From NCBI GenBank assembly GCA_963717985.1, contig CAVQYC010000001.1, forward strand, positions 456,712 to 520,711: a DNA stretch of 64,000 nt. The letters run 5' to 3'. The first letter of the stretch is position 1, and the number at the start of each line of letters is the position of its first letter. A program made the position numbers and the translations under genes. Shown here in pieces: positions 9,175-56,303 of this stretch. This DNA is from an uncultured delta proteobacterium. GTDB lineage: Bacteria > Desulfobacterota > Syntrophorhabdia > Syntrophorhabdales > WCHB1-27. The notes beneath the pieces are model-generated. The model ran no database searches, was not told the origin of the DNA, and worked only from the letters and a program-made list of their open reading frames with translations.

Positions 9175-9248
9175 CCCGCCCCCGTGCTCCTTACGTCCGC
9201 GCGGGAGGCGGGAGGGACGCCGTCTCACCGATTGCGGACCTCGGACCC
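9175..9248. repeat. Conserved inter-island cis motif, copy 1
   Basis: CCCGCCCCCGTGCTCCTTACGTCCGCGCGGGAGGCGGGAG; its reverse complement matches 56160-56199 at 38/40. Confidence 0.85.
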
Positions 9249-9408
9249 CATTTTGTACCACCGCCTTCGTTTAACATTGATTTCATTTATGGACAGACCG
9301 TATTATTTTGTCCAGTGTTCCTATCTGTAGCGTTATTGGAATGCGCCTACTATATATTGATTGAATCACAATCTTGAAATATTTCGCTGAGCCTGATATG
9401 ATTGGTTC

Positions 9409-9831
9409 GTGCCGTCGCCAAAGTGGGCTACCCAACAAATTATTATGTTAATTTTCTGCATAGTCGTTGTAGGAGGTATAATTTTTTTAAAGCTTTTTGG
9501 TGACGAGTTCGGGATTCATACACAAGGTTATCCCCTTTATTACGATCTGCCCCTCGGGGAGCAAGCTGACGTTCGCTTCACCTACGAGTGTCCGACGCGA
9601 CAGGACTACGGCGAGGGGTCTCCTTCCAGATTTGGGGTCCACTCATCATATATCCCCCCCGGAATGCACGAGAGTCCCGGAGGGCTTACCGGGACCCCCA
9701 CCGAAACCGGCGAATGGTACATAAGAGTGTCAGTCACTTGTGATTATAAGTCGCTTTATGATGGCAGTTGGTGGTACAACCGGCCCCCCTACGAAACCGG
9801 AGCGAAAATACGAGTACACCTACGGCGATAA
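9409..9831 (+). CDS. Membrane-anchored protein with putative Ig (He_PIG-like) domain
   Basis: N-terminal hydrophobic anchor; IPPGM..GLTGTPTETGEWYIRVSV resembles putative Ig repeats. Confidence 0.55.
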   Translation: MPSPKWATQQIIMLIFCIVVVGGIIFLKLFGDEFGIHTQGYPLYYDLPLGEQADVRFTYECPTRQDYGEGSPSRFGVHSSYIPPGMHESPGGLTGTPTETGEWYIRVSVTCDYKSLYDGSWWYNRPPYETGAKIRVHLRR

Positions 9832-9907
9832 AAGGCTGCTGAAGCGCGTTGTTTCGAGGAGGCTGCTGGGTCTTGCACTACAACTGTAAATTTTCGATTC
9901 GTTCTCC

Positions 9908-11125
9908 CTATGGAGGCTTGCCCACAATACCGGCACGCACCGGCCAGAGGCAGAATCTATTATCATCGTTTTTTTTGTTACGAGCACTACTAAGGTTAGC
10001 GATATGGTTCATGCCCAGGCTGCGGCCGAGCCCCCAACTGCCGTCTTTCATATTGACGACCCATGCGAGGTCGTGCGACCTGTAGGGAGAAGACGACCAG
10101 TAGAAATCGGGCTGAACATTTATGAATGGATGGCCCTGCGACAGGGCGCACTGATGCATAGAATAATCGATCAGGCTTCTAAGCTCCTTAACGTTCGGCA
10201 GCCGCCAGTCGTTGTGCCCGTAGGTTCCTGAGCCGGAATTAATAGAGGTTACGTATTTTAGCGCTCCTACCCACGTCTTATAACTACCCCATAATAAACT
10301 CTGGTCGTTTTCCGTGACGTTTCCATCTTTTGTCCATATGAGACCGGTCAGGTTATCCGTTACAGTGCCATCGTCATTATCGATAAATCGTGGATCGGGC
10401 CAGGGAACTCCTGCTTGTATATGGCCGTCGTCACCTGAATGGCGGCTTTGCGTCTGACCCGTGGCCCAAATAGCCGCGTTACGAAATGCCCCGGATTGTC
10501 CATCACGAACAGGCCAAACTTTTGAGTCGCACGCCCTAGGATCAGGTTTCTTGATCGCCTTCCATCTGGCTTCTGCGAGGCCGCCCATGGTAAAGTTAAT
10601 GCGCCACGCGAAGGAGCTATTGATTGCATGCGTTGTAGAGGACCAATAGCCCGTAAAAGGCAACGATCCAACATTTCTAAATATCTGCGGCACACTGCGC
10701 AATGGGCTTATGAGATCCGGATTTCTATTGGACGGCCCGAAGATAACGAGGCTTTCCAACTCGTTAATATTTGGCAGCCGCCAGTCGTTATGACCAAGGT
10801 GATTCACGGCATTTAAACAAGTTACATAATTAAAAGCATTCTCCCAACCCATCACTCCACCCGCGCACGACCCGGCCGTCAACACTTTATGCGCGGACGA
10901 CCACCAGTGTCGCTTTTGCATCGGCTCGTATGACCCGACCATAGGCGTACCGGCATTTTTTGTCCATATGAGACCGGTCAGGTTATCCGTTACAGTGCCA
11001 TCGCCATTATCGATAAATCGTGGATCGGGCCAGGGAACTCCTGCTTGTATATGGCCGTCGTCCCCTTCCTTATTGCCAAGGAATCCTAAAGTCCATCCCG
11101 TCCGCGGCAGGTTTACAGTTCCCAT
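9908..11125 (-). CDS. Tandem DUF1566 (Lcl C-terminal) domain protein
   Basis: Two copies of RFIDN.DGTVTDNLTGLIWTK ... HNDWRLPN..EL.SL ... YWSS. Confidence 0.88.
   Translation of the reverse strand: MGTVNLPRTGWTLGFLGNKEGDDGHIQAGVPWPDPRFIDNGDGTVTDNLTGLIWTKNAGTPMVGSYEPMQKRHWWSSAHKVLTAGSCAGGVMGWENAFNYVTCLNAVNHLGHNDWRLPNINELESLVIFGPSNRNPDLISPLRSVPQIFRNVGSLPFTGYWSSTTHAINSSFAWRINFTMGGLAEARWKAIKKPDPRACDSKVWPVRDGQSGAFRNAAIWATGQTQSRHSGDDGHIQAGVPWPDPRFIDNDDGTVTDNLTGLIWTKDGNVTENDQSLLWGSYKTWVGALKYVTSINSGSGTYGHNDWRLPNVKELRSLIDYSMHQCALSQGHPFINVQPDFYWSSSPYRSHDLAWVVNMKDGSWGLGRSLGMNHIANLSSARNKKNDDNRFCLWPVRAGIVGKPP
10328..11062. repeat. 105 bp intragenic direct repeat (10328-10432 and 10958-11062)
   Basis: Compared by eye: one mismatch (tcgtcatt vs tcgccatt). 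Confidence 0.9.
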
Positions 11126-11368
11126 GTCTGATCCCCCCCTTTGTTCTTTGTGTGGAAGAATCTTCGTTTCATTTTTTAGATAAGAGAAGGCAATATGGCA
11201 ACGTAAGCAACGTCCCTATTATACACAATTTCTCGCCCAGTATCACAGGCCCTCCTCTTTTCGATTTCCATAATGCGACAAAATGTATTATTTTGTCCAT
11301 ATTATGAAAACGCAACATAGGAAAGACGCGAGTTTGCGCGGTCTTTCCGACCCTGAAACCTGGACAAA

Positions 11369-11440
11369 ATGAACGATGACAGAAAACACCTTACCCAGCG
11401 GGAAGTGGAAAAAGTCATCAAGGCCGTCAAAGCAAGCCGT
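11369..11440 (+). pseudogene. N-terminal remnant of a FimB/FimE-like tyrosine recombinase
   Basis: DDRKHLTQREVEKVIKAVKASR resembles this family's N-terminus; similarity stops at the motif copy at 11437. Confidence 0.55.
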
Positions 11441-11494
11441 GCCCATCCTTCCGCGCGGGAGACGGGAGGTACGTCGCTTGCGGACTTCGGACCC
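11437..11494. repeat. Conserved inter-island cis motif, copy 2 (diverged)
   Basis: CCGTGC..TCCGCGCGGGAGACGGGAGG..TTGCGGACTTCGGACCC aligns with 9182-9248. Confidence 0.75.
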
Positions 11495-11833
11495 GTAAAG
11501 GGCGCTTTCTCCGGCACTCGGAAGAAAAGTTTTGACACAGACAAAAAATTGTGGTCTCTATAGGTTGCAGGCATTGTTACCTGCCATAATAAATAATTCA
11601 GGAGCTAGTCTCCTGCAGGGTTAGACCCTGCCTACAATTAACTTCACACCATTTAGGGCTTTGCCCTCCCACAGCTAAATACCTTCATTTTCAGGAATTT
11701 ATTTCCTGCACCCGACACAACTTAGGGGCCGCCCCTGCCTTTATCAACCGAGACTTGCCCTTGCCGTCTAACATAGCGGCAAGGGCAAGCAGAGTGACAA
11801 GGAGGTCGCAGGCAATGGCAAGTAGGTGTCAGA

Positions 11834-12007
11834 ATGAATAAGCGCTTCTTACGCCTCCCGGAAGTCCTTGAGCGAATCCCTGTGTCGAAGAGCACGTGGT
11901 GGGCCGGTGTCAAGAAGGGCATTTTCCCAAAGTCAATCAAATTGTCGGCCCGAATCACCGTGTGGCTGGAAGAGGATATTGAAAAGATCGGCGTTGAAAC
12001 AAAATAG
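11834..12007 (+). CDS. alpA: AlpA-family excisionase/regulator (57 aa, below ORF-track cutoff)
   Basis: Own translation: MNKRFLRLPEVLERIPVSKSTWWAGVKKGIFPKSIKLSARITVWLEEDIEKIGVETK. Confidence 0.92.
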   Translation: MNKRFLRLPEVLERIPVSKSTWWAGVKKGIFPKSIKLSARITVWLEEDIEKIGVETK

Positions 12008-12056
12008 TCCTTTCAAAACCGCCCGATATTTCATACAATAGCGCCAAGGGGTAGGT

Positions 12057-13679
12057 ATGGAAAATACTCTCTACTACGGCGATAATCTGGACATTCTGCG
12101 CCGCTACCTGAAAGACGAATCGGTTGACCTCGTTTACCTGGACCCGCCGTTCAATTCCAATGCGAACTATAATGTGCTTTTTGCAGAAAAGGACGGACAT
12201 AAGGCCGCGAGTCAGATTCGGGCTTTTTCGGATACCTGGACATGGACACAGGAAAGCGAATCCGCCTATGCAGAGGTTGTGACGGCGGGCGGGCGGGTGG
12301 CCGATTGTTTACGGGCTTTCAGGACGTTCTTGGGCGAATGCGACATGTTAGCCTATCTCGTTATGATGGCTCCGCGCCTTGTGGAACTGCGGCGGACATT
12401 GAAGCCCACGGGCAGCATATACCTGCACTGCGATCCGACAGCGAGCCACTACCTGAAATTGCTTATGGATGCTGTTTTCGGTCCTCAAAACTTCAGAAAT
12501 GAAATCGTCTGGAAGCGAACCAGCGCCCATAGCAGCGCCAAAAGATACGGTCCTGTCCACGACACGCTGCTCTTATTTTCTAAGACAGATGGGTACACCT
12601 GGAACCAATCCTTTCAAGCCTACGACGAATACTACCTTGACCAATTCTACACGCACATTGACGACAAGGGTAGACGATGGACAAGGTCCGATCTCACCGG
12701 GGCCGGTGTCCGGCATGGTGAAACCGGAAAGCCGTGGCGCGGCATTGACGTAACTGCGAAGGGCCGTCACTGGATGGTGCCTACTGCCGAGTTAGACAAG
12801 CTCGATGCTCAGGGTAAGATTCACTGGCCCGAAAGGGAGGGTGGTATGCCAAGGCTCAAGCGCTATGTTGATGAGCAACCGGGCGTTCCGCTGCAAGACG
12901 TGTGGACGGACATTCCGCCGATGCATAATCTATCCCGTGAACGCCTCGGCTACCCCACGCAGAAACCCGAAGACTTGTTGGAACGAATGATTCAGGCGAG
13001 CAGCAACGAAGGGGACACAATCATGGACCCCTTCTGCGGCTGCGGGACCGCTATCGCCGGTGCCCAAAAACTCGGCCGCCGATGGATAGGGATAGATATA
13101 ACGCACCTTGCAATAACGCTTATCAAGCACCGCCTTAAGGATACCTTCGGCGAAGCTGCCGCATACAAGGTGATCGGGGAACCGGTAAGCGTGCCTGACG
13201 CCGAGGCGCTTGCGGCTTCAGACCCGTATCAATTTCAATGGTGGACCTTGGGCCTTGTGGGGGCGCGGCCCGTCGAACAAAAGAAGGGAGCGGACAGGGG
13301 TATTGACGGGCGGATCGTCTTTCAGGGCGATAAGGCCGGAGTATTTGAAAGCGTAATTCTATCAGTGAAGGCGGGTAAGACCGGCCCGTCGCACGTCCGA
13401 GACTTAAAAGGCGTCTTGGAGCGGGAAAAAGCAGCCATAGGCGCTTTGATTACAATGCAAGAGCCGACTGCTGAAATGAAGACCGAGGCTGTTATGGCGG
13501 GATTCTATCAGTCCGAGACGTGGGGGCGGAAATATCCGCGAATGCAACTCTTGACAGTGGCCGAATTATTGGCCGGGAAGAAGATCGAAATGCCCCCGAT
13601 CCGGCAAGTGGGTGCTACGTTCAAGAAAGCGCCCAAAGCGACGGGGACACAGGGCGAACAGGTTAAACTGCCAATGTGA
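12057..13679 (+). CDS. N6/N4 DNA methyltransferase (beta class) fused to a C-terminal Mrr-like endonuclease domain
   Basis: DPPF, YPTQKP, DPFCGCGT; C-term GADRGIDG..LSVKAG..HVRDLKGVLEREKAAIGALIT. Confidence 0.88.
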   Translation: MENTLYYGDNLDILRRYLKDESVDLVYLDPPFNSNANYNVLFAEKDGHKAASQIRAFSDTWTWTQESESAYAEVVTAGGRVADCLRAFRTFLGECDMLAYLVMMAPRLVELRRTLKPTGSIYLHCDPTASHYLKLLMDAVFGPQNFRNEIVWKRTSAHSSAKRYGPVHDTLLLFSKTDGYTWNQSFQAYDEYYLDQFYTHIDDKGRRWTRSDLTGAGVRHGETGKPWRGIDVTAKGRHWMVPTAELDKLDAQGKIHWPEREGGMPRLKRYVDEQPGVPLQDVWTDIPPMHNLSRERLGYPTQKPEDLLERMIQASSNEGDTIMDPFCGCGTAIAGAQKLGRRWIGIDITHLAITLIKHRLKDTFGEAAAYKVIGEPVSVPDAEALAASDPYQFQWWTLGLVGARPVEQKKGADRGIDGRIVFQGDKAGVFESVILSVKAGKTGPSHVRDLKGVLEREKAAIGALITMQEPTAEMKTEAVMAGFYQSETWGRKYPRMQLLTVAELLAGKKIEMPPIRQVGATFKKAPKATGTQGEQVKLPM

Positions 13680-13845
13680 AGGCCAATCTTGTTCATCAGG
13701 TTCGCATACTTTCCATGGCACAGGGAGGCTCTCTCTTCCACCTAAATAGCGTGTCGAATTCAAACTTGTGAATCGCGGATTGCCGCAGAAAGACGACAAC
13801 AAAGGCGTTAGCCGCCGACGTATCGAGTTTACTTGGATGCAGTAA

Positions 13846-15304: not shown

Positions 15305-15330
15305 GTTCGATGGACGCCGCCCCACCATTT
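15305..15330 (+). repeat. Degenerate ssrA 3'-end copy (attR of element 1 / attL of element 2)
   Basis: GTTCGATggacGCCGCC-CCACCATTT vs ssrA GTTCGATtcccGCCGCCtCCACCATTT. Confidence 0.7.
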
Positions 15331-15764
15331 TTTTATTGATATTATTAGCATTATTTCCTCCTTGTTCGTTCCAGGGCCGTTCCAGGCCTTGTGAACTTTA
15401 TGATTCTCTTTTCAAGCAGTGCTTTCCTGGCCGATACCTCTACCTTTGCATACCTCTTCACTGATTCCCGCCGCGCGTGGTCCGTCGCTATCTGAACCTC
15501 GTCGATTGAATAGCCGTACTCATTCACAAGTTGAGAGCATGAACTGTGCTTGACCCCAGGATAAAGCGCTATCGATTCTCCTACCTTCTTGCAAGCCTCT
15601 TTCCATATCTTTGATAGCGCCTTGCCCGTGTATGGCTGTCCCGGCCTTTCGCCGTTCGGATTGACGAAGAAATACGGCGAGACGATGGACAACGATTGTT
15701 GTTTTGCCTTTTCAGTCTCGTAGTGCGGAATAAACTCGTCGACCATAGGGACGTAATGAATTTC

Positions 15765-17605
15765 TGATTCCTGAGAAGAAAGTGCCCTTTCTGAAAGGAT
15801 CAATCGTCACCATCGTTGTGTTACCACCATCGTGAAGATGAACTTCTTAGGCAAGGACACGCCAACTATTTCGGTCCAGAATACCTTCATGCTAATACAA
15901 AGAGACGATATGCAGCCTTCCAGGGTCTTTTTCAAGGCCCAAGGGGCCTTGGCCCACCTCTTTATGTTGCAGGCGATCAGTTTGCATGCAACGGCAAAGC
16001 ATACTTTTGCCAGCCGACGCACCCGAAGTCTGCCGATTCCGTGAGATCGTTTCAATTCGGAGTTTGTTGCTTCGATCCCTGCACGAATCTTGTACCGGTC
16101 TTTCCATTCAGTGGTCTGCTGGATGGCATACATCTGATCCCGCAGGCGAAGCTCGGCAGTGATCTCCAGACGAAAGTCCCCGACCGTTTCACGGGCCTGG
16201 CAGCCTTTGTTGCGGTGGTTCGGAGCTCTTACCGGGCACCTATCGAGCATCGTGCACGATCGACAGGCGTTTCCGTCAAAGATCGCATGGAGAGAACGAC
16301 GGGTGCTGTTGTTGCCGCTCAGTATGCGATGGTCTATGGGACTATTACCCATGGGACATCGGGTCACCAAACCTTCCGAGTCGAAGGAGAAAAGGTCTCT
16401 GCCCACGATATCGTCGGAGAGCCTGCTGCGGTTGACGGGCGTGACGAATTCGATACCTTGCTCTATGACCTTTGCCGCTGAAGGGACAGACGGATAACCG
16501 CCGTCGGCAAAGAGCGCTTCGGGCTTCAACCCGGCAGCCTCCAAACGTTCGATAACAGGAAGGGCCTTGCCGATGTCGGATCTGGCGGCGCCATGCACCT
16601 CATAGTCTGTGATGATTTCGGTTTTTCCGGTATTCTTGCACGTCTCCGTAACATGAAGGCTGTATCCCGGCCCTTTATGTCCGCAGGACGCATCCGGGTC
16701 GTAAGGGGATTGAAGGGTTGCTCCTTCACTCTTTTTCTTCACCTGGACCTTGGACGATTCTTGGTCTGAGGTGAATTCGCATTGTTCGGAGAAAAGGCGC
16801 TTCAACAATTGGTACGGCTCATTGCCTGTAAGTTCATTATCCTTCTCGAAGATAACAATAAGGTCATAGAGATACTGCGCCAGTTCTTCCAGCTTGATCT
16901 TCTGCTCGGCCGGACCCAATCCGAACCAACCCTCGGGTTCGCTTGAATGCCATTCCTGAATTGCCTTCGGGACTCTCGACAATTGATCTTCATTCAGACT
17001 CTTGAGAAACTGGGTGAGCGTATTCGAGAATAGAGCCAATCTGCCTCGTACACGAATGTTCGAGATTATGTGGGTAGAATCAAGCCGCTGGCTGGAAGAC
17101 GAGAGGCCAAGTTTGCTTATCGCTGAATCTCTGATATTGTCGAATACATGGCGGACCAGCTTCATCTCCGGGTCTTTGGCGGCCAATCGCCTGCGGAACT
17201 CTACAAGAGAGCGACGGGACAAATAATCTTCCTCATCGCTGACATCCAAGGCGTATCGCCACCGGGTGTCAAAGCTGAAGGTGTCGAGGGCCTCCTGGTC
17301 ACTCAAGTTGCTCCACTCCTGAAGGAGACACAAACCCAAAAGACGCGCAACGCTGAAATTAGGCCGGCCTGTTGTGCCGTACAGAATCGCATAGCGATCT
17401 TCGTTCCTGAACAGGATTGGAAATACCTCGCCTCTAAACAGGTGAGCCCATGAAGACTCAAGACGGTTCCGCAAAGAGGGGGACACCTGCGTCTCCACGC
17501 CGAGTAGTTTTTGTTGAGGTGGTGTTTTCTTATACATGACATATTCTATCATTGTATGTAATTAAATACAATAGTTATTTGTGGAGAGTTACTTCTCAGG
17601 AATCA
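15765..17605 (-). mobile_element. IS copy A, 1841 bp, IS1182/IS5-like DDE element
   Basis: 14 bp TIR TGATTCCTGAGAAG; target duplication TTTC at 15761-15764 and 17606-17609. Confidence 0.92.
15807..17552 (-). CDS. DDE transposase (DUF772-like N-terminus), 581 aa
   Basis: GRPN..LSDQEA..WRYAL..SLVEFRRRL, LDSTHI, ADGGY, YKIRAGIEATNSELKR. Confidence 0.92.
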   Translation of the reverse strand: MIEYVMYKKTPPQQKLLGVETQVSPSLRNRLESSWAHLFRGEVFPILFRNEDRYAILYGTTGRPNFSVARLLGLCLLQEWSNLSDQEALDTFSFDTRWRYALDVSDEEDYLSRRSLVEFRRRLAAKDPEMKLVRHVFDNIRDSAISKLGLSSSSQRLDSTHIISNIRVRGRLALFSNTLTQFLKSLNEDQLSRVPKAIQEWHSSEPEGWFGLGPAEQKIKLEELAQYLYDLIVIFEKDNELTGNEPYQLLKRLFSEQCEFTSDQESSKVQVKKKSEGATLQSPYDPDASCGHKGPGYSLHVTETCKNTGKTEIITDYEVHGAARSDIGKALPVIERLEAAGLKPEALFADGGYPSVPSAAKVIEQGIEFVTPVNRSRLSDDIVGRDLFSFDSEGLVTRCPMGNSPIDHRILSGNNSTRRSLHAIFDGNACRSCTMLDRCPVRAPNHRNKGCQARETVGDFRLEITAELRLRDQMYAIQQTTEWKDRYKIRAGIEATNSELKRSHGIGRLRVRRLAKVCFAVACKLIACNIKRWAKAPWALKKTLEGCISSLCISMKVFWTEIVGVSLPKKFIFTMVVTQRW

Positions 17606-18422
17606 TTTCTCCTGTCTTGGTCCTATCAATCAACTGTCTGTCAGAAAATGAGCGGTGAATGGTGAATATTTCTCCGTCAAAATCGATCTTATGCAGGGAT
17701 GCCGCCTCACAAGGCCGCCGAAGATGGAATTTCAGCCACCAGATAATAGGTTGGTGTTCTGCGGGAATAGCCTCGATAACGGGCCGCTGCCTGTCCTCTG
17801 GCAGCCATACGATCGGCGTATCCGTGATATTGTATGCCTTCCTCTTAGGGAACGGCGGGACCACGGGAATTCGCTCCGATCTCCACGCAAAGTCGAGACA
17901 GGCATGAAGGCAATACATGACGTTAAGCTTTCCCTTTCCTTCCCGGTTGATGCTGTTCAGAATTCGCATCAGCGTGTCGTAGCGGACCTCATGAAGACGA
18001 ATACGCTCATTCTCGAAGAACGGTATCAGATAGTTCTCGATGCTGCCCCGATAATCCTTGTAAGTGGCGGGGGCCAGGGTCGGCTTCACGGTTTCAAGCC
18101 ACTCCTTGAGATAGTCCGACACTTTGCACGGAAGCTCCGTGTACTCCTCGATCCGGAAAACGCCTTTTTCAACGTCCGCTTGCATACAGGACAGAAGCTT
18201 TTCGGCCATCCTGCGATCATAGAGCAATTCGCCTTTGTAGTGATATACCTTGTACGTCTTCTTATGCGCGGGATGGTACCAGGCCACATAATACCTCTTC
18301 ACGTGCTCCGCATAGCCTATGGTCCCTTTCATACAAAAACCCCCAGGAATGAATTTACCTGGAGAAATTATATTGACCTGAAAGGGAGCGGTCAACGCTT
18401 TTGCCTTTTATCCTTTGTCTCT

Positions 18423-18686: not shown

Positions 18687-18731
18687 CTTTTTCTCCTTTC
18701 GGAATGTTTCTTCCCGTACCCTCAGTGCAAC

Positions 18732-20540: not shown

Positions 20541-22381
20541 TGATTCCTGAGAAGTAACTCCCCACAAATAACTATTGTATTTAATTACATACAATGATAG
20601 AATATGTCATGTATAAGAAAACACCACCTCAACAAAAACTACTCGGCGTGGAGACGCAGGTGTCCCCCTCTTTGCGGAACCGTCTTGAGTCTTCATGGGC
20701 TCACCTGTTTAGAGGCGAGGTATTTCCAATCCTGTTCAGGAACGAAGATCGCTATGCGATTCTGTACGGCACAACAGGCCGGCCTAATTTCAGCGTTGCG
20801 CGTCTTTTGGGTTTGTGTCTCCTTCAGGAGTGGAGCAACTTGAGTGACCAGGAGGCCCTCGACACCTTCAGCTTTGACACCCGGTGGCGATACGCCTTGG
20901 ATGTCAGCGATGAGGAAGATTATTTGTCCCGTCGCTCTCTTGTAGAGTTCCGCAGGCGATTGGCCGCCAAAGACCCGGAGATGAAGCTGGTCCGCCATGT
21001 ATTCGACAATATCAGAGATTCAGCGATAAGCAAACTTGGCCTCTCGTCTTCCAGCCAGCGGCTTGATTCTACCCACATAATCTCGAACATTCGTGTACGA
21101 GGCAGATTGGCTCTATTCTCGAATACGCTCACCCAGTTTCTCAAGAGTCTGAATGAAGATCAATTGTCGAGAGTCCCGAAGGCAATTCAGGAATGGCATT
21201 CAAGCGAACCCGAGGGTTGGTTCGGATTGGGTCCGGCCGAGCAGAAGATCAAGCTGGAAGAACTGGCGCAGTATCTCTATGACCTTATTGTTATCTTCGA
21301 GAAGGATAATGAACTTACAGGCAATGAGCCGTACCAATTGTTGAAGCGCCTTTTCTCCGAACAATGCGAATTCACCTCAGACCAAGAATCGTCCAAGGTC
21401 CAGGTGAAGAAAAAGAGTGAAGGAGCAACCCTTCAATCCCCTTACGACCCGGATGCGTCCTGCGGACATAAAGGGCCGGGATACAGCCTTCATGTTACGG
21501 AGACGTGCAAGAATACCGGAAAAACCGAAATCATCACAGACTATGAGGTGCATGGCGCCGCCAGATCCGACATCGGCAAGGCCCTTCCTGTTATCGAACG
21601 TTTGGAGGCTGCCGGGTTGAAGCCCGAAGCGCTCTTTGCCGACGGCGGTTATCCGTCTGTCCCTTCAGCGGCAAAGGTCATAGAGCAAGGTATCGAATTC
21701 GTCACGCCCGTCAACCGCAGCAGGCTCTCCGACGATATCGTGGGCAGAGACCTTTTCTCCTTCGACTCGGAAGGTTTGGTGACCCGATGTCCCATGGGTA
21801 ATAGTCCCATAGACCATCGCATACTGAGCGGCAACAACAGCACCCGTCGTTCTCTCCATGCGATCTTTGACGGAAACGCCTGTCGATCGTGCACGATGCT
21901 CGATAGGTGCCCGGTAAGAGCTCCGAACCACCGCAACAAAGGCTGCCAGGCCCGTGAAACGGTCGGGGACTTTCGTCTGGAGATCACTGCCGAGCTTCGC
22001 CTGCGGGATCAGATGTATGCCATCCAGCAGACCACTGAATGGAAGGACCGGTACAAGATTCGTGCAGGGATCGAAGCAACGAACTCCGAACTGAAACGAG
22101 CGCACGGAATCGGCAGACTTCGGGTGCGCCGGCTGGCAAAAGTATGCTTTGCCGTGGCATGCAAGCTGATCGCCTGCAACATAAAGAGGTGGGCCAAGGC
22201 CCCTTGGGCCTTGAAAAAGACCCTGGAAGGCTGCATATCGTCTCTTTGTATTAGCATGAAGGTATTCTGGACCGAAATAGTTGGCGTGTCCTTGCCTAAG
22301 AAGTTCATCTTCACGATGGTGGTAACACAACGATGGTGACGATTGATCCTTTCAGAAAGGGCACTTTCTTCTCAGGAATCA
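20541..22381 (+). mobile_element. IS copy B, 1841 bp, inverted relative to copy A
   Basis: Same TIR; target duplication GACAT at 20536-20540 and 22382-22386. Confidence 0.92.
20594..22339 (+). CDS. DDE transposase, 581 aa, one residue different from copy A
   Basis: KRAHG vs KRSHG; otherwise identical translation. Confidence 0.92.
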   Translation: MIEYVMYKKTPPQQKLLGVETQVSPSLRNRLESSWAHLFRGEVFPILFRNEDRYAILYGTTGRPNFSVARLLGLCLLQEWSNLSDQEALDTFSFDTRWRYALDVSDEEDYLSRRSLVEFRRRLAAKDPEMKLVRHVFDNIRDSAISKLGLSSSSQRLDSTHIISNIRVRGRLALFSNTLTQFLKSLNEDQLSRVPKAIQEWHSSEPEGWFGLGPAEQKIKLEELAQYLYDLIVIFEKDNELTGNEPYQLLKRLFSEQCEFTSDQESSKVQVKKKSEGATLQSPYDPDASCGHKGPGYSLHVTETCKNTGKTEIITDYEVHGAARSDIGKALPVIERLEAAGLKPEALFADGGYPSVPSAAKVIEQGIEFVTPVNRSRLSDDIVGRDLFSFDSEGLVTRCPMGNSPIDHRILSGNNSTRRSLHAIFDGNACRSCTMLDRCPVRAPNHRNKGCQARETVGDFRLEITAELRLRDQMYAIQQTTEWKDRYKIRAGIEATNSELKRAHGIGRLRVRRLAKVCFAVACKLIACNIKRWAKAPWALKKTLEGCISSLCISMKVFWTEIVGVSLPKKFIFTMVVTQRW

Positions 22382-22605
22382 GACATTCAAAAACGTCCCG
22401 CCCCTGATATCCCTTCCCCTCGCACTCCCCTTCAAGATAGTGATAACAGCCCCCTTCGCACCCGAATTCTTCCGCTTGTACATCGCCCAGGCACTCGTCT
22501 AAGAAGGCCCCGAAGTGTTCTATGACCCTGCTTTTGCCCTGGACCCACCATTCCGGCAATTGCTGTGCCGCTCGTACAGCCTTCTTCCGCTCAAGCCTTT
22601 CTTTC

Positions 22606-23661
22606 TTACGTTTCTTCATAATGGCCCCCATAATCGGTATTTTCATAGGACTTCTCGCCGTGCCCTTCTTCAAATTCCTCGACGCTCATTCTCTTTTCGC
22701 TTCCGAACGGTAAGAATCTCTTATCCCATTCCGTCCCGGTTCCCATGATATCCGTACCCACACACTCCCAATTCCCTTTGACGAACGGTTCAGTCACCGG
22801 AATTTCTTTCTCGCCGATCTCCACGGCCTCACACTGCTTTTCTTCCTTCTTCCTCTTGCCGTAAGCCACCCGGTAGAGAGGCACCCCGAAGAAATAGGCA
22901 TAGGCATAGAGAAGATGGACTTTATTGCCATCGACGCAGGTAACGGCCTTCTTCAGATAGCTTGAAAGGTAGCCCGCAACTTGGCCCCCCGTTCTCACTG
23001 TGACCTTGATCCCTTGTGGTTTTGACCATCCCCACAGCCTTACTATGTCGTCTATATCGGCGATCCAACCGCCCTTGAAATAGAAGTGGATATGAGGAAG
23101 GCCCGATTCCCTGTAAGGCTCTATGGCGAAGCCTCTATAACTCCACTCCCATCCTTTTCGCTTGTAGAAGGACCGTAGGCGCTTCAGGAAGGCGCTTATG
23201 TCCGTTCCGATGCGGAACATGAGGAATCCATAGAAGTCGCCGCCCCATCCTGATTCTTCCATGAGATCGTACATACGCCGCTGATCGTATCCTATTGCGA
23301 GCATCGTCACCTTGGTTTCATCCTTCACGCTATCGTGTATGTCCCAATACCGTTTCTTGTACCAGTCATCCCTTTTCGTGTTCCACCTGGAGCAGATCGG
23401 CATCCGCTTGTACTCCCCGCTATCCATGTTCCTGAAGACCAGCCCCACGTTGCTGTAATAATCGACGGTAGAATAGAACATCGTCGCCACATCCTGCTTG
23501 TCGAACAGGTATGAGTATTTATCCACTATTTCGGCTCTCTTCTTTTTCCCCCGTACTTCTGTTCTTATTGTGACGTGTTTATCAGACCTTGGCCGTGTCT
23601 CCACCCAGGGTTGAATATCGTTCCTTGCCCGCCAGAGTGAATAATCCCGACTTTCGCTCAT
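22606..23661 (-). CDS. HUH rolling-circle replication initiator (two-tyrosine type)
   Basis: EPYRESGLPHIHFY (HUH) and VAGYLSSYLKK (YxxxY). Confidence 0.75.
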   Translation of the reverse strand: MSESRDYSLWRARNDIQPWVETRPRSDKHVTIRTEVRGKKKRAEIVDKYSYLFDKQDVATMFYSTVDYYSNVGLVFRNMDSGEYKRMPICSRWNTKRDDWYKKRYWDIHDSVKDETKVTMLAIGYDQRRMYDLMEESGWGGDFYGFLMFRIGTDISAFLKRLRSFYKRKGWEWSYRGFAIEPYRESGLPHIHFYFKGGWIADIDDIVRLWGWSKPQGIKVTVRTGGQVAGYLSSYLKKAVTCVDGNKVHLLYAYAYFFGVPLYRVAYGKRKKEEKQCEAVEIGEKEIPVTEPFVKGNWECVGTDIMGTGTEWDKRFLPFGSEKRMSVEEFEEGHGEKSYENTDYGGHYEET

Positions 23662-23798
23662 CGGTGTAATTCATTACCTCTGTTACAAGCACAGAGGAGC
23701 CGACCAGCGCATGCTTGTGCTCGACCTCCACTACTCCGTTCTGTCACCCTCGTCGGGAAGTGATGTGGGGAAAGGTTTGTGCGCGGCGCAAGCCCCGA

Positions 23799-23835
23799 CC
23801 CCCCGCCGTGCTCCTCCGTCCGCGCGGCAGGAGGG
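23799..23835. repeat. Conserved inter-island cis motif, copy 3, ~140 bp upstream of rep
   Basis: CCGTGCTCCTCCGTCCGCGCGGCAGGAGGG shares the CCGTGCTCCT and GTCCGCGCGG blocks. Confidence 0.75.
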
Positions 23836-24167
23836 ACCGGAACTTGCGCCGGAATTTGCTTTGAGAACGTCGGGAAGTCCCCCGACGTAGGCCCTATATG
23901 CCCTTTACAATGGCCCGAGGAAGCTTTATACTCACTCTTAGGTGATACGGTCACGTTTCACCACCCCCGCCGCCGGAGACGCCCGCCAAAGCTCTTCCGG
24001 TGGCTTTTTTATTCGTCTTGAATTAGCTGTTGCTCAAAACGAAAAGCCGGCATGATAGCCGGCTTAGGGGTGGTGGTTTTTTCAGCACTCGTGCAGATTC
24101 GTTCCAGGATTTAAAGAAGCGTCTAAAACCTCCTATTGTTTCAGCTACTTGGACGGGGGGGCAGGTT

Positions 24168-24961: not shown

Positions 24962-25059
24962 AAGCTTTTCTCCTTTTGATTTTGACTAACGCCGGAACAT
25001 GAACTGCCTGTTGAGACTCCCCACCCCCTTTCGCTTTCATGCGTGAAAGCGTTTTTTTT

Positions 25060-25155
25060 GGCAGCCCGGCCGTCTGTCTGCAGTGCTCACGAGAAGCGTA
25101 TCAGAGACCCGCTGGCTTTCCGTCCCACCCTTACGAGTGGTTTGGCTTTGTCAGA
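25060..25155 (-). ncRNA. GEMM-I (cyclic di-GMP-I class) riboswitch
   Basis: Minus strand GACAAAGCCAAACCACTCGTAAGGGTGGGACGGAAAGCCAGCGGGTCTCTG..CAGACGGCCGGGCTGCC. Confidence 0.88.
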
Positions 25156-31911: not shown

Positions 31912-31948
31912 GTCGATAGGTCTTATAAGTCCTATAATGCCTATCGAC
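31912..31948. repeat. Intergenic TAGGTCCTAT-type decamer repeat, copy 1 (others at 35009-35039, 48100-48147, 53133-53170)
   Basis: ATAGGTCTTATAAGTCCTAT-like units just after stop codons. Confidence 0.7.
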
Positions 31949-37264: not shown

Positions 37265-37279
37265 GAAAACTCAAGACTG

Positions 37280-37435
37280 AAAAGGCAGCGCGTCACGCGC
37301 TTGAAAAGGGAAGACGGTGCAACTCCGTCACGGGCCCGCCGCTGTGAGGGGGGACGAAGGGCGCAAAAGACCACTGGGAAACCCCGGGAAGGTGCGCTCA
37401 GTAAGGATGAACCCCGAAGTCAGAAAACCTGCCTG
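37280..37435 (+). ncRNA. Cobalamin riboswitch between acsB and acsC
   Basis: AAAAGGGAA..GGTGCAACTCC..GCCCGCCGCTGTGA..CCACTGGGAAACCCCGGGAAGG..AAGTCAGAAAACCTGCC. Confidence 0.9.
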
Positions 37436-37500
37436 GCAGTCTTACCCAAACCCCTCTCCCCGCGGTCGGGAGCGGAAGCTCACTTGATAAGGAGACTGCT

Positions 37501-50947: not shown

Positions 50948-51065
50948 CTCGTGACTCTTTGCCCTTTGCTCTTACCGTCTATAGGATGTTCTTTCCGGCT
51001 GTGGGAGATAAGTCCCCGGTCGTGTGAGCAGCATAAAGCGCACCTCCCGTCGAGGTCGCTTCCGA

Positions 51066-51350
51066 TCAGCGCGTATCCTTTTCCACCCATATCGAGTGTT
51101 CCACGAGTCCGAAGGTTTTAAGCGCCTCACTTATGCTCAGGCCCGCCCTGCTCCCCTCGTGGTGAAGGGAATTGGTATCCCATGTAAGACTCAGCGCCAG
51201 GTCCGTCTGATATGATGCGCTGTTATACATATGGATCCGGACCAGTCCGGCTTCCCCTGCTGCGTGCCTCATCGTGTCAAGAAGCAGGCCGGCCACATTT
51301 TCCAATTGGGCGTGCGTCGTCCTCAATCGTATCATCTCCATCCAGAGCAT
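51066..51350 (-). CDS. Small hypothetical protein under a sigma54 promoter
   Basis: MLWMEMIRLR..HSIW; divergent from the sigma54 activator. Confidence 0.7.
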   Translation of the reverse strand: MLWMEMIRLRTTHAQLENVAGLLLDTMRHAAGEAGLVRIHMYNSASYQTDLALSLTWDTNSLHHEGSRAGLSISEALKTFGLVEHSIWVEKDTR

Positions 51351-51361
51351 CAACTATAAGT

Positions 51362-51379
51362 AAGCATAAAGTGTGCCAG
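51362..51379 (-). promoter_or_regulatory. Sigma54 (-24/-12) promoter
   Basis: CTGGCACACTTTATGCTT, exact GG-N10-GC spacing. Confidence 0.75.
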
Positions 51380-51528
51380 ACTTGATAAAATTCAGGATGT
51401 CTTTGACCCACTGTGATAAGGCACGCAATACTATTAAATGCTACAGAAAGTTCTGTCATAATTGGAAGATATATTGTAGATTATCAGATATGTGAGAGTT
51501 ATCGCAACACATATGAATCGAGAGGCCC

Positions 51529-53136: not shown

Positions 53137-53352
53137 GCGCATTATAAGTCCTATAGGACCTATAAGACGTATACCAAAGGCCAATCCTCCCCGGAGACAA
53201 TCACACATCCCTTTCGCACTAAGCGCCCCACTATCAACCCGAAAGCACCACGGTGAAAGTATGCGCGCGTGCTGTCCTCACGCCGCCGCGACCATAGTGG
53301 CGCCTTTAAGAAGACTGGAAGAAGGGCGATAAACTGACTGCGGAATGCGAAA

Positions 53353-55551
53353 ATGAGAGACGACGCCGGAGACCATGTGGATTCGCAGAAACAAGGCACG
53401 CAGGAGATAACCGTCCTTTTTGCCGGGGTCGCCGTTTCTCAATGGCTTCAGGGCCTGGGGCACGCGGCCGGGGCGGGTGCGACAAACGAAGGTCTGAACA
53501 CTCTGGTGGATATTGTCACCCAGCGGAGAGGCGATGTCATCAAAAGGACTGACCACTCAATCCTCGCCTGCTTTGCCGACCCTACGGAAGCGGTAAAGGC
53601 CGCGATCCACATGCAAAGAACCGCGGCGGGCAACGCGGATGGAAAGACGTCTCTCGCCATTCGCATTGCCATCCATTACGGTCAGGGCACAGCGGATAAC
53701 GGCGCCCTGCACGGAAATATGGCGGTCTTTGCTGCTGAGGCAGCCTCTATCGCAAAAGCCGGACATATCTACCTCTCGGCGGAGGCCCGCAGCGCCATGC
53801 AGGAGCTGAAGTTGGTGGAGTTTCGCCCCATCCCCATGGAAGGGGGCGTCCTTTTCGGTCACTCTTCCGTCTTAGATGTAGCCTGGCATCCGGAAACGGA
53901 TTGCACCCCGGGCCCGCATCCGACCGCGGAGAGCGGGCGGAGGGCAGGGGTCCCGTCAACGCTCTTCCTCCATGGCGCGGCCCTCCTGGAAGGGGGAAAC
54001 CCGCCATGCTTTTACTGCGGGAGCAGGAAGCACCCCACCACTCGTTGTCCGTCAAAGCAGTTGCCCTACAAAGCATGTGGTCTCGAAGCGCTGGGCTACC
54101 TGACCATGGACGAGATAAATCACCTGTTTTCAACATATCTGGCCGGGGCTGGGGGAGACCTCCCGGCAAACCCCGAGCCCTTGGAGACGGATAAAAAAGA
54201 TCCTGTCTCTCTTGCCCCCTGGAGTTTCTATGAGCTGAAAAGGGTCTTCCAACTCCGCTTTCTCAATATAATATGGAGCGCTTCACCAAAAGAAGACTGG
54301 TACAGGGTGAAGGAAAACAAGAGGGAAACCTCGGCTAAGGGTGGGCTTTTGTGGCTTGCTCGCGATTGTATCAGGACGTCTGATCTCGATGAGGCAGAGG
54401 ATCTCCTCCAACGCCACGCACGTCAAAACTCGAAAGACTACAGGACTGCCTGCGGATTGGGCTTTGTCCACATAGAATGGGGGAAGTACACATCCGCCGC
54501 CGATTTTTTCAGTGAAGCCCTGAGCCAGGAGATCACACCGGTCCAGAGGACGTACCTCTTGCTTCTCCTTTCCCGTATCTATACATATACCGAAGACCAT
54601 GGCAAATCCTTCGGCACGCTGAAGGAAGCTTTGAAAATAGAGCCCTATTTTCTTGAAGCCATGTTTGAAGAGATAGTGCGATATTTTCAGTTAAGGCAGC
54701 CGTCTGAGGCCGAAAGCCGCCTCCTTAAACTGCTCCACTTCGCGCGTGAATACTACGTCGCGGCCCTTATATCCCCCGAACTGGCGGAATTCCAGTCTTC
54801 AATTGCTCCTGAATTACGTAGGCTCGTCATGCAGACCCACAAGGAGGCGCAGACGGCGTCAGAGGAAGCGGATAAGGCGGTCGACGCCCTGAAAGGTCTT
54901 CTGAGAGACGACGACGAAGGCGTCGCGGAGATGGTTTCCATGCAGGAGCGTATGCATGAGCTGCTCGAAAAACCAGACGCACTCCTTGCCTGTCAAGACG
55001 CGATCCATACGGCAAAAAGGATCGCCGCCGACTGCGATGCGATTGAAAAGAAGCGAAAAGACCACGCGTTGAAGGTGCTCCTGAAACTGGAAGAGCGCGC
55101 CGGGACGCTGCTCCTGGATGGGATCGCGATGGCAAAGCTTGCTCCCCTCGTTCGCCACGTTTTTGAGCATCTCCGCTCTCTCACGGACGGGCTTGAGCGG
55201 CGCGAGCCCTTCGACCGCTGTCTCGAGCAATGCGAGGTGCTCTCCAGAGAGCTTGAGCCCCTAGAAACAGTTGCGAAACGGCTGAAGGAGCGGGCCGAGC
55301 TTTGCCGGGCATGGGGAAGCTTCTTTAGGGACTTGACTATTACCCTCTTGATCACCGCCACCATCGGGCTGGTACTCCTTCCCGCCATTCTCTTTTGCGT
55401 GGACGCGCTTCATCCGGGATCGACACTGATAGAGCCTCCGGAGGTGTGGTCGGCCCAGAAAGTCGTTTTCGTCGTTGGATGTCTGTTTGGCGTAATATTC
55501 GCTTTTGGCCGTACCATTATCGTGAAGGCGAAGCCGGATAAAAAGAGATGA
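53353..55551 (+). CDS. Degenerate class III cyclase domain + CCHC zinc knuckle + TPR-like repeats + two C-terminal TM helices
   Basis: ITVLFAGV..HSILACF..AVKAAIHMQ..IRIAIHYG; CFYCGSRKHPTTRC; helical repeats. Confidence 0.7.
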   Translation: MRDDAGDHVDSQKQGTQEITVLFAGVAVSQWLQGLGHAAGAGATNEGLNTLVDIVTQRRGDVIKRTDHSILACFADPTEAVKAAIHMQRTAAGNADGKTSLAIRIAIHYGQGTADNGALHGNMAVFAAEAASIAKAGHIYLSAEARSAMQELKLVEFRPIPMEGGVLFGHSSVLDVAWHPETDCTPGPHPTAESGRRAGVPSTLFLHGAALLEGGNPPCFYCGSRKHPTTRCPSKQLPYKACGLEALGYLTMDEINHLFSTYLAGAGGDLPANPEPLETDKKDPVSLAPWSFYELKRVFQLRFLNIIWSASPKEDWYRVKENKRETSAKGGLLWLARDCIRTSDLDEAEDLLQRHARQNSKDYRTACGLGFVHIEWGKYTSAADFFSEALSQEITPVQRTYLLLLLSRIYTYTEDHGKSFGTLKEALKIEPYFLEAMFEEIVRYFQLRQPSEAESRLLKLLHFAREYYVAALISPELAEFQSSIAPELRRLVMQTHKEAQTASEEADKAVDALKGLLRDDDEGVAEMVSMQERMHELLEKPDALLACQDAIHTAKRIAADCDAIEKKRKDHALKVLLKLEERAGTLLLDGIAMAKLAPLVRHVFEHLRSLTDGLERREPFDRCLEQCEVLSRELEPLETVAKRLKERAELCRAWGSFFRDLTITLLITATIGLVLLPAILFCVDALHPGSTLIEPPEVWSAQKVVFVVGCLFGVIFAFGRTIIVKAKPDKKR

Positions 55552-55682
55552 GTCATCTGAGAAGGTGATCGCCCTGCGTGGCGGGAATGGTATCAGGGGG
55601 GGGGAGCACGGGCGGCCGCAGGGTGTGGAGACCTTGTGGAGACCCACCACACCCAAAACGACTGAAACACCGCATAAATAAA

Positions 55683-55724
55683 TGCCCCCGAGGTGACTCG
55701 AACACCTGGCACCAGGATTAGGAA
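55683..55724 (-). other. 3' half of tRNA-Arg(CCT), att-site duplicate bounding element 3
   Basis: Minus strand TTCCTAA-TCCTG-GTGCC-AGGTG-TTCGAGT-CACCT-CGGGGGCA; no 5' half upstream. Confidence 0.85.
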
Positions 55725-56159
55725 AGCAAAATCAGCCGAAAGTCACGACCAATCCGAGACCAATAGAATCCTCGACAATCCGCGTAACGCGGGCTTCATG
55801 CACATTTCCACCGTCTTGGGTCCGCTTTGTCGAAAGTTGGGCCTTTTCGAACGCGACAGGCACAATTTAGGCACAGAAGAACGTGATGGCGGAAGTGTGC
55901 CCATCCATCCGCTCCTATATGAGACAAGAAAGCCACCGGGTACTGTTGGCGGCGTCTCAGGGGCGGGTGGGCCATGTACAGGTATGTTCTAAGCCATTCG
56001 CAATCGAGTCTGAACCACGAGAGCGGAGTCTTTTCAACAATTCCGAGCGAGCATCGGCGCATCGAAGGGGCAAGCGGTGCCGGTGCCTTTCAAGGCAGAA
56101 GCGGCACGGCAATTGTTGAAAAGGCGGAGCGCCGCGCAGAGGGGGAGCGTCTTTCGCCG

Positions 56160-56199
56160 CTCCCGCCTCCCGCGCGGACGGCAGGAGCACGGGGGCGGG
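56160..56199. repeat. Conserved inter-island cis motif, copy 4, followed by a candidate nick site CACTTG/ATTAT (56215-56225)
   Basis: CTCCCGCCTCCCGCGCGGACGGCAGGAGCACGGGGGCGGG. Confidence 0.85.
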
Positions 56200-56303
56200 G
56201 CGTCGTCGTTACTTCACTTGATTATAGGCTCACTCAAGGAGAAAACAAAAGGAACCCCTTTGAGAAAACCTGGGCAGGCTACATATCCTCGGTCAATGAG
56301 ACA

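Follow-up and report, generated by a model that had tools for sequence, protein, structure and literature searches.

A GC-rich hairpin at the zot end of tRNA-integrating inoviruses is shared with small Rep-plus-integrase elements: a candidate packaging signal

The sequence described here, referred to as the window, is a 64,000-nt stretch from an uncultured delta proteobacterium of the Syntrophorhabdales (GenBank assembly GCA_963717985.1, contig CAVQYC010000001.1, positions 456,712 to 520,711). It carries three islands, denoted island 1, element 2 and element 3, in which a GC-rich 40-bp motif had been recognized from the sequence alone (the original prediction). Elements 2 and 3 are small rolling-circle elements of the replication initiator (Rep)-plus-integrase kind, both damaged by insertion sequences (IS), and island 1, which has no Rep, carries a P4-type integrase and a block derived from an inovirus. 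The 40-bp motif is the conserved apex of a longer, imperfect GC-rich hairpin of ~70 nt, and this hairpin, to judge from the sequences of its relatives, belongs as a cis element to a clade of inoviruses that integrate at tRNA genes. Four copies were located in the window, three of them full hairpins and one truncated (loci outside the window are designated by L and a number):

9158–9230, minus strand, the sense of the neighbouring genes: hairpin copy 1, full; 70.2 bits with covariance model R1, and fold; gene-sense loop GGACGTAAGGA
11437–11494, minus strand: hairpin copy 2, truncated; partial covariance-model match at 11437–11458 with 17.5 bits, and alignment; loop GGAAGGATGG
23782–23853, minus strand: hairpin copy 3, full; 61.4 bits, and folds; loop GGACGGAGGA, the same as in inovirus L124
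56144–56216, plus strand: hairpin copy 4, full; 79.6 bits, and reading frames; loop GGACGGCAGGA

Copy 1 matches copy 4, read as its reverse complement, at 38 of 40 positions; extended to 45 nt, the identity is 91%. CCGCGCGG is common to all four copies and GGAGCACGG to three of the four. The original prediction had described the four places, the 38/40 identity and both shared sequences correctly. In shuffled sequence, the core pattern would be expected 0.02–0.04 times by chance, compared to the 2–3 occurrences seen. The 40-bp motif is real, but the conserved unit is longer, with covariance-model matches of 73 nt. No further match above noise was found in the 64 kb with model R1 and the filters off; all window copies lie inside the islands, and the remaining ≈44 kb of the window is without any. 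Copy 4 is inverted on the plus strand, and the sense relative to the neighbouring gene is thus equal for all copies, as had been proposed. Copy 3 is located ≈120 nt upstream of the ATG of the element 2 Rep (Rep2), and copy 4 lies within the 5′ part of the long open reading frame (ORF) of the element 3 Rep (Rep3), which is open from the ATG at 55974. Copy 2, read in gene sense, has its 5′ arm and loop but breaks off after the first 6 nt of the 3′ arm, and its loop class differs from that of copy 1; its upstream flank extends to 11907 and is 87–89% identical to L141 and L144. A coding or peptide motif was excluded, because the three full copies are read in different frames, even though the Rep3 ORF crosses the motif. 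Around copies 1, 2 and 4, Rfam gave no match even with E relaxed to 5, and none of the four copies had a match at gathering level.

The structure was derived from an alignment of 17 distinct sequences that included relatives from public collections; a 15-sequence version was also made. From the loop outwards, the hairpin has an inner stem of 7 bp, a stem of 6 bp and an outer stem of at least 7 bp, with a one-base bulge at each of the two junctions; overall, the stem is 20–33 bp and the loop 10–11 nt, which reads GGA[C/A]G..[A/T]GA on the gene-sense strand. Both single-base bulges are conserved. In the 17-sequence alignment, 87.6% of the cells were standard pairs, compared to 36–51% when the partners were slid by 1–3 columns, and 11 of the 20 pairs showed changes on both sides. 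None of 500 shuffles reached the observed pairing values, with the caveat that the structure came from the same sequences, which flatters the pairing score. The outer stems are dissimilar between subtypes, yet complementary (CGCCGC/GCGGCG, GCGTCC/GGACGC, CTTG..CCCC/GGGG..CAAG and AGCGCCGC/GCGGCGCT), and the variants L166, L172 and L174, which were obtained without use of the motif, add compensated changes in the inner stems. The sequence of the apex is conserved while the base of the hairpin covaries. The same fold was obtained for all nine variants tested. The hairpin folds on either strand, with a single invariant non-Watson–Crick position that is T·G on the strand complementary to the genes and C·A on the gene-sense strand. 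There is no T tract after the hairpin on either strand, and a terminator scan made no call at the three window copies scanned; together with the 10–11 nt loop, this excludes an intrinsic terminator. The stem is almost all G·C, a promoter scan found nothing within the hairpin, and no TAGCGT-type loop, RSB or CS-6 was found in it.

Relatives of the motif were found by an exact-pattern scan of 185,579 species genomes, which returned 19 matches. Seventeen of these were chance matches in high-GC genomes, and two were real loci: L124, from a metagenome-assembled genome (MAG) labelled “delta proteobacterium”, and L132, from a Syntrophaceae MAG. A scan of metagenomes yielded 18 matches, 15 of them real, and all of the real ones, like L124 and L132, lie in mobile elements. 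The related loci are labelled Syntrophaceae, Syntrophorhabdales or “delta proteobacterium”, and each contains a single copy of the hairpin (276 kb of related loci). A looser pattern, CCGTGC-N7-8-TCCGCGCGG, produced at least 120 matches in IMG/VR, essentially all of them chance; Rep2 and Rep3 queries found no relatives in that database.

Two of the loci found through the motif pointed to filamentous phages. In L124, the hairpin lies directly 3′ of a homologue of Zot (gene I) in an inovirus gene block, and in L142 a Zot C-terminus occupies the same position relative to the hairpin. As an independent test, Zot homologues were fetched by protein similarity alone, and their contigs were then inspected. 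The hairpin was present in all five Zot lineages at 59–75% identity (L166–169, L170/171, L172/173, L174/175 and L176), once per prophage, in gene sense, and overlapping or abutting the zot stop codon. A Zot lineage at 42% identity, with a different Rep family, had no hairpin. The five lineages are complete tRNA-integrating inovirus prophages, in which a PF23343 Rep and some ten small genes precede a large adsorption-like protein, a DUF2523 protein and Zot, with variable cargo and then a tyrosine integrase after Zot. The hairpin is ≈5 kb from the Rep, where a separate hairpin with a CTTG-bearing loop sits. The cargo slot between the hairpin and the integrase in L166–L176 holds restriction-modification genes, an OLD-family nuclease, a radical-SAM/SPASM protein or two-component regulators.

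Homologues of Rep2, found at 54–75% identity, behaved differently from those of Zot: in the four lineages fetched by protein similarity, the GC hairpin was present in none, which argues that it is unnecessary for replication by Rep2-type proteins. Since five of five Zot lineages carry the hairpin and none of the four lineages of Rep2 homologues does, what it constantly accompanies is the end of the inovirus morphogenesis module, and no particular Rep. Some Rep2 relatives have a long GC hairpin of other sequence (clear in L160, with z = −3.8, moderate in L158 and weak in L162 and L164), which is suggestive, but only suggestive, of a different hairpin occupying the same slot.

Outside the inoviruses, the hairpin is found 35–130 nt upstream of five Rep lineages: Rep2, Rep3, a Rep3-like group, and the Reps of L151 and L183 (the sole IMG/VR match), each of which has yet another Rep. 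In eight metagenome loci, a Rep3 orthologue (83–88% identity) or a Rep3-like protein (≈30%) follows the hairpin after 35–90 nt. Pairwise identity among these five Rep lineages and the inoviral Rep does not exceed 33%. In four further loci (L141, L152, L150 and the genome-scan match L132), the hairpin is followed by a homologue of a 128-aa ORF that also lies downstream of copy 1. This ORF has the look of a ribbon-helix-helix (RHH) protein by eye, gave no Pfam, NCBIfam or PHROG match, and takes the place of Rep in type B and L132/L150 loci. The orientation of the hairpin relative to zot, Rep or the RHH-like gene is identical in every locus.

The Rep genes of the window and the structured sequences near them are the following:

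22606–23661, minus strand: Rep2, an HUH rolling-circle initiator with HIH and YLSSY motifs; Pfam PF23343, E 5e-6
23969–24005, minus strand: second hairpin, degenerate (GCCACCGG..CTTTGGCGGG..CCGGCGGC), at the edge of element 2; alignment with Rep2-family loci, and hairpin family
55932–55970, plus strand: second hairpin, degenerate, in element 3; alignment and hairpin family
55974–57332, plus strand: Rep3 ORF; Pfam PF23343 and PHROG replication initiator, with the HUH core from about 56220
56020–56132, plus strand: hairpin I of Rep3-type elements, directly 5′ of the GC hairpin; RNAalifold on seven loci
56217–56222, plus strand: CTTGAT box, 15 nt after the GC hairpin; sequence, conserved in Rep3-type loci

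Rep2 and Rep3 both match PF23343 and have otherwise almost nothing in common, so that the two dissimilar Reps of the original prediction are indeed nearly unrelated. The second hairpin has a stem, GCCACCGG/CCGGTGGC, with compensatory variants and a conserved CTTG-bearing loop, TCTTGGCGGG. It is located upstream of Rep in four otherwise unrelated lineages (the Rep2 family, the Rep3-like group, L183 and the L166 inovirus) and is intact in L145, L147, L157, L158, L160, L162–L169 and L183. In phiX174 and pC194, CTTG marks the nick site of superfamily I Reps. We take the CTTGAT box at 56217–56222 to resemble the phiX174/pC194 nick-site consensus, and the second hairpin is likely to be the nick-site hairpin of these replicons, or at least a candidate for it. 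CTTG has been described as the recognition sequence of superfamily I Reps (bioRxiv 10.1101/2023.12.30.573655). The GC hairpin contains no CTTG, and it was ruled out as the nick site, because a separate CTTG-loop hairpin accompanies the Reps.

Hairpin I is ≈110 nt long and has a 15-bp A+T-rich stem (CTTTTCAACAATT/AATTGTTGAAAAG). Its apical stem shows a compensatory C-G to G-C swap, with G·U pairs on the gene-sense strand, and it is a candidate single-strand origin (sso). The Rep3 frame is open from a conserved ATG/GTG start (MY[R/K]Y[V/I]LKH) through both hairpins in all Rep3-type loci, with compensating +1/−1 indels between subfamilies; in the lineage of the window there is no canonical in-frame start between the GC hairpin and the Rep3 core. 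At ≈57180–57381, the 3′ end of Rep3 and an overlapping small zinc-ribbon-like ORF are in frames different from those in L140/L148. The tblastn match of Rep3 is split at residue 322, reflecting a frameshift in one of the two lineages (window versus L140/L148).

The islands themselves are delimited by the following features:

5673–6022, plus strand: transfer-messenger RNA (tmRNA) gene, the attachment site (att) of island 1; ARAGORN and Rfam
6201–7430, plus strand: island 1 integrase, P4-type with arm-binding domain; Pfam
8512–8898, minus strand: 128-aa ORF downstream of copy 1; tblastn matches in L141, L152, L132 and L150
9250–11436, no strand: 2.2-kb segment between copies 1 and 2; blastn join in L141/L144, ORFs and Pfam
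15305–15327, plus strand: tmRNA 3′ end in a diverged second copy; by eye, ≈20 of 25 positions agree with 5998–6022, missed at ≤3 mismatches
15351–18395, minus strand: element 2 integrase, split by an IS into a C-terminal half (15351–15803) and an N-terminal half (17589–18395); Pfam
15757–17605, no strand: IS copy within the element 2 integrase; IS pair alignment
20541–22389, no strand: second IS copy, inverted and 99% identical; IS pair and Pfam DDE transposase
55676–55724, minus strand: 49-nt 3′ fragment of tRNA-Arg(CCT), the left end (att) of element 3; direct repeat flanking the L148 element and the L170 prophage
57439–59073, minus strand: IS transposase cutting off element 3; Pfam, and blastn homology to L140/L148 stops at 57339

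Island 1 begins at the tmRNA gene and comprises the P4-type integrase, a MerR/HicB gene, the 128-aa ORF, copy 1, the 2.2-kb segment and copy 2, and also an AlpA gene (11834–12007) and a methylase–endonuclease fusion. In sibling assemblies, a HicA toxin gene is called beside the MerR/HicB gene. The 2.2-kb segment contains a 140-aa ORF, a protein with an Lcl_C domain and an N-terminal fragment that is recombinase-like. L141 and L144 lack the segment, and a single hairpin joins the flanks there. Within the gene for the Lcl_C-domain protein there is a 113-nt direct repeat (97%; 10324–10436 and 10954–11066) that reflects a duplicated domain. A 64-aa ORF (11369–11563, plus strand) runs into the truncated copy 2; its first ≈25 residues (MNDDRKHLTQREVEKVIKAVKASR) resemble FimB/FimE-type tyrosine recombinases by eye, and it has no Pfam match. 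A further ≈350 nt of non-coding sequence (11480–11830) is 87–89% conserved with L141 and L144; in it are three short hairpins, their stems GCAGG/CCTGC, and a promoter-like TTGACA site directed at the AlpA gene. This is probably the regulatory region of island 1.

The diverged tmRNA 3′ end at 15305–15327 is probably both the right end of island 1 and the att of element 2. Island 1 and element 2 are thus arranged one after the other at the tmRNA gene, with this sequence between them, and do not occupy different att sites. Island 1 has neither a Rep nor a CTTG hairpin. In inovirus L170, the sequence after zot matches the hairpin and downstream flank of the island at 81% identity over 184 nt, and another block of 55 nt is common to the island and L176-type phages; the island may be a relic of recombination with an inovirus. 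Its description as a Rep-less satellite served in trans is neither strengthened nor refuted: the Rep is indeed missing, and a Rep supplied in trans would find no visible origin to act on, the CTTG hairpin being missing as well. L132 and L150 are better candidates for a Rep-less derivative, since they keep the hairpin and the CTTGAT box, with the 128-aa ORF replacing Rep3.

Element 2 is on the minus strand directly after island 1, with its far edge near 23965 beside a host terminator. Its integrase is colinear with an intact gene in L156. The IS is 1849 nt long, and its second copy is inserted just after Rep2, truncating a small ORF. Element 2 is probably immobile, because the IS copies split the integrase and truncate the small ORF. 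Just outside the element, a c-di-GMP-I-GGC riboswitch (25056–25155, minus strand) is found upstream of a minus-strand gene. Element 3 spans 55676–57339. A complete Rep3-type element, L148, is 6.1 kb long and has the same 49-nt repeat at both ends and an integrase beside the tRNA gene. Relatives of Rep2 on long contigs have the order att, Rep, small ORFs, integrase and tRNA, and the complete relatives of elements 2 and 3 have the order att, hairpins, Rep, small ORFs, tyrosine integrase and tRNA; for these two elements, the proposed family of rolling-circle integrative elements, with PF23343 HUH Reps, is borne out. An att or attP identity of the hairpin itself was excluded, the element ends being tRNA/tmRNA fragments elsewhere. 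Nor does the hairpin resemble, by eye, the consensus of a XerCD/dif-like site or an integron attC, and integration is explained by the tyrosine integrases and tRNA att sites. The three islands gave no Zot or coat match to Pfam, PHROGs or NCBIfam, tblastn of the phage proteins of L124 found nothing in the window, and the small ORFs (o8512, sm2, sm3, o55693 and others) had no family matches. Elsewhere in the window are a cobalamin riboswitch (37266–37449, plus strand) and 28-nt intergenic repeats at 31917, 35011, 48111, 53136 and 53145, composed of 9-nt units (TAGGTCTTATAAGTCCTATAATGCCTAT and variants), which are unrelated to the hairpin.

The non-inoviral elements and the inoviruses are connected in several ways. 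Three loop classes are common to an inovirus and a non-inovirus element: that of copy 1 and L141 is shared with L170, that of copy 3 and L151 with L124, and that of copy 2 and L183 with L166. In the first of these, copy 1 (like L141) is 100% identical over 41 nt to the post-zot hairpin of L170. Inovirus L170 (at 9–53 and 11626–11674) and element 3/L148 also share a 45–49 nt att fragment of tRNA-Arg(CCT); a common integrase was rejected, the integrases of L170 and L148 being only 27% identical despite the same att. Assemblies ERZ25039528 and ERZ25039486, both of which contain the window locus, also include an inovirus with the motif (Zot P0026), and L140, L171 and L172 come from one JGI sample. 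The IS of inovirus contig L185 is only 64% identical to that of the window, and IS copies are therefore uninformative, either way, about a link within one genome.

The place of the hairpin at the end of zot, its size and its form match those of the packaging (morphogenetic) signal of Ff and IKe. From its structure and distribution, the zot position, the fixed orientation and the sharing across unrelated Reps, we infer a packaging function and, further, a satellite lifestyle for its non-inoviral carriers. We thus tentatively favour an interpretation that we would not yet call probable, namely that the hairpin is an inovirus packaging-signal-like element that has been borrowed by small Rep-plus-integrase elements, making them satellites. 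It is ranked first because of the form of the zot-end hairpin, the parallels with a Xanthomonas packaging signal and the plasmid pDolos (see below), the shared loop classes, the shared att and the co-occurrence in assemblies. After excision, the element's own Rep would nick the separate CTTG-bearing site, releasing plus-strand circles on which the hairpin would fold. The assembly proteins of a co-resident helper inovirus would then recognize the hairpin, and the element would exit in phage filaments, in the manner of a phagemid or satellite. The original prediction had concluded from the conservation across Reps that the signal is recognized by the host. This does not follow; recognition by the phage is at least as likely, because the constant home of the motif is the zot 3′ end in an inovirus clade.

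Several observations weigh against a packaging function. The hairpin has no sequence similarity to the packaging signals of f1, IKe or Xanthomonas phages; similarity to characterized signals, however, does not define function, since the known packaging signals also differ among themselves. The invariant position is a C·A mismatch on the gene-sense strand, presumably the packaged one, and the complementary strand folds slightly better in seven of nine variants. The location after the last assembly gene would suit a minus-strand origin equally well. The elements in the window are damaged by IS and may be dead, and packaging is unexplained for island 1, which is without Rep or CTTG hairpin and may be a simple relic. 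Finally, the co-occurrence of helper and island is seen at the level of assemblies and not at that of one cell.

Of the other explanations, a minus-strand (single-strand) origin, the sso of the original prediction, is the main contender: we consider it unlikely, but it would account just as well as packaging does for the sharing among Reps, the constant orientation and the restriction to certain hosts. In this case, the plus-strand hairpin would be recognized by host primase, PriA or RNA polymerase, as a cassette exchanged among the replicons of one host lineage. The hairpin is common to unrelated Reps and an inovirus, its orientation is fixed, and it is confined to related hosts and absent from Rep2 relatives elsewhere, which fits the known host specificity of sso elements. 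In Ff phages, moreover, the minus origin adjoins the packaging signal 3′ of the last assembly gene, and the long GC hairpin of other sequence in the same slot of some Rep2 relatives (L160) would be a counterpart. What speaks against such an origin is the hairpin itself, a single fully G+C-paired structure of ~70 nt with no −35/−10-like duplex and, by eye, no ssoA-type motif, whereas known single-strand origins of the RNA-polymerase type are larger and contain promoter mimics. Hairpin I, 110 nt long with an A+T-rich stem and directly 5′ in Rep3-type loci, is the better sso candidate, and the GC hairpin is kept in island 1, which has no Rep. An element acting at the RNA level, i.e., a terminator or exonuclease barrier at the 3′ end of the zot operon transcript, reused as a 5′ leader structure in the small elements, appears quite improbable to us. 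Such a role would be in keeping with the constant position at the zot stop, with the often convergent orientation of the cargo genes past the hairpin, and with the T·G wobble, which would make a good G·U pair in an antisense transcript. Yet the T/U tract is missing on either strand and the terminator scan was negative, the convergent cargo genes stop 400–570 nt away, and in Rep3-type loci a terminator inside the Rep ORF would abort Rep; the conservation of the loop and apex is also far above what a mere barrier would need.

The remaining explanations carry very little weight with us. The hairpin ends 15 nt before the CTTGAT box in Rep3-type loci and is close to Rep in five lineages, as might be expected of a Rep-binding or extrusion hairpin at the nick site, but an accessory part of the double-strand origin of this kind is very unlikely: the same hairpin occurs with six mutually dissimilar Rep lineages (≤33% identical, the inoviral one included), is absent from the four lineages of Rep2 homologues, lacks CTTG, and in the inoviruses lies ≈5 kb from the Rep, where the separate CTTG-loop hairpin sits. 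A recombination site or hotspot for the exchange of modules and cargo, whether site-specific or acting through shared identity, seems hardly more than a slim prospect. Recombination at or near the hairpin did take place, as shown by the different loop class of copy 2 and its cut 3′ arm, which abuts the recombinase-like fragment. The 2.2-kb segment that is missing from L141 and L144 is bounded by copies 1 and 2, the flanks are shuffled among loci (zot, Rep3, Rep2 or RHH-like block), and the variable cargo of the inoviruses begins after the hairpin. On the other hand, no recombinase is common to all carriers, the integrases differ, and the att sites are elsewhere, at tRNA/tmRNA ends. Other mosaic junctions are found outside the hairpin (L132 and L150 diverge after AAGGAGAAAAC), so that homologous exchange at a conserved block would suffice, with no need for a dedicated function. 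Lastly, the GC-rich, palindromic and multi-copy nature of the motif in the window recalls genome-wide repetitive extragenic palindromes (REP), the alternative that the original prediction had named as its refutation. Within the reach of these data, we regard this as next to impossible: the window copies are confined to the islands, related loci have one copy each, and the two real genome matches and 15 metagenome matches are all in mobile elements.

If the hairpin is indeed a packaging signal shared with satellites, model R1 would mark an inovirus clade in uncultured Syntrophia-like bacteria together with virion-less elements that possibly ride along, and would provide a means to recognize such satellites in metagenomes. 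It would also account for the wide spread of small Rep-plus-integrase islands that have no transfer genes. A more specific version, about which we are doubtful although it is a real possibility, is that one inovirus packaging hairpin was captured independently by at least five unrelated Rep-plus-integrase lineages and by a Rep-less island with a P4-type integrase, and that the loop variants track helper variants. Strictly anaerobic syntrophs would then harbour a guild of integrative inovirus satellites, for which the hairpin would serve both as a common “ticket” and as a junction for the swapping of modules. Even as a minus-strand origin, the hairpin would be a clean new case of a cis cassette common to unrelated rolling-circle replicons, in a Gram-negative anaerobe. 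To our knowledge, the packaging signals of integrative filamentous phages are almost unknown beyond Ff and one Xanthomonas study, and inovirus satellites are known from only a few cultured systems.

Among known systems, origins of the phiX174/pC194 type, with a CTTGATA nick consensus and superfamily I HUH Reps, resemble the present replicons in that CTTG-bearing sites are found near every Rep. The GC hairpin is not part of this resemblance, since it has no CTTG and is separate from the CTTGG-loop hairpin and the CTTGAT box. The sso elements (ssoA, ssoU and others) and the Ff minus origin are likewise structured, orientation-specific and host-specific cassettes common to replicons with unrelated Reps, but sso elements are usually 130–300 nt long with promoter-like or named motifs, whereas here there is a single GC hairpin in which none is visible.

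The packaging signal of Ff and IKe is, like the hairpin described here, one imperfect, orientation-specific plus-strand hairpin of 50–80 nt that immediately follows the last morphogenesis gene, and besides an origin it is the sole cis requirement for packaging a foreign replicon. The signals of f1 and IKe are hairpins of 54–57 nt (bioRxiv 10.1101/2023.12.30.573655). The differences are that the sequences are dissimilar, that in several lineages the present hairpin, rather than being placed in a large intergenic region, overlaps zot at its 3′ end, and that the present inoviruses are integrative and without gene IV. In Xanthomonas inoviruses, a short GC-rich hairpin beside a CTTG origin inside gII is the packaging signal; its stem and loop are conserved, and it is interchangeable among related phages (Yeh et al., bioRxiv 10.1101/2023.12.30.573655). 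The Rep3-type hairpin, 15 nt from CTTGAT inside the Rep ORF, has essentially the same layout, but it is ≈70 nt long and of other sequence, and in the inoviruses themselves it is found at zot and not in Rep.

Inovirus packaging hairpins and Rep-bearing inovirus satellites are thus kinds of element already known. As far as the literature was searched, the hairpin family, which has no Rfam family, its zot position and its spread over five Rep lineages of tRNA/tmRNA-integrating mini-elements are undescribed. RS1 and TLC of Vibrio cholerae are inovirus satellites that are integrated in the chromosome. The rolling-circle plasmid pDolos of Shewanella has no phage genes and is packaged by an inovirus, for which a short packaging signal was argued to be sufficient (bioRxiv 10.1101/2023.11.28.569023); with such Rep-bearing satellites on record, the original prediction went too far in considering the arrangement undescribed. 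Like RS1, TLC and pDolos, the elements described here are small and have their own rolling-circle Rep and no virion genes; those three ride in the particles of helper inoviruses, as the present elements may. Unlike RS1 and TLC, which use XerCD at dif, the present elements have tyrosine integrases at tRNA/tmRNA genes, and, in contrast to all three systems, one hairpin is common to at least five unrelated Rep lineages, in hosts that are uncultured anaerobes.

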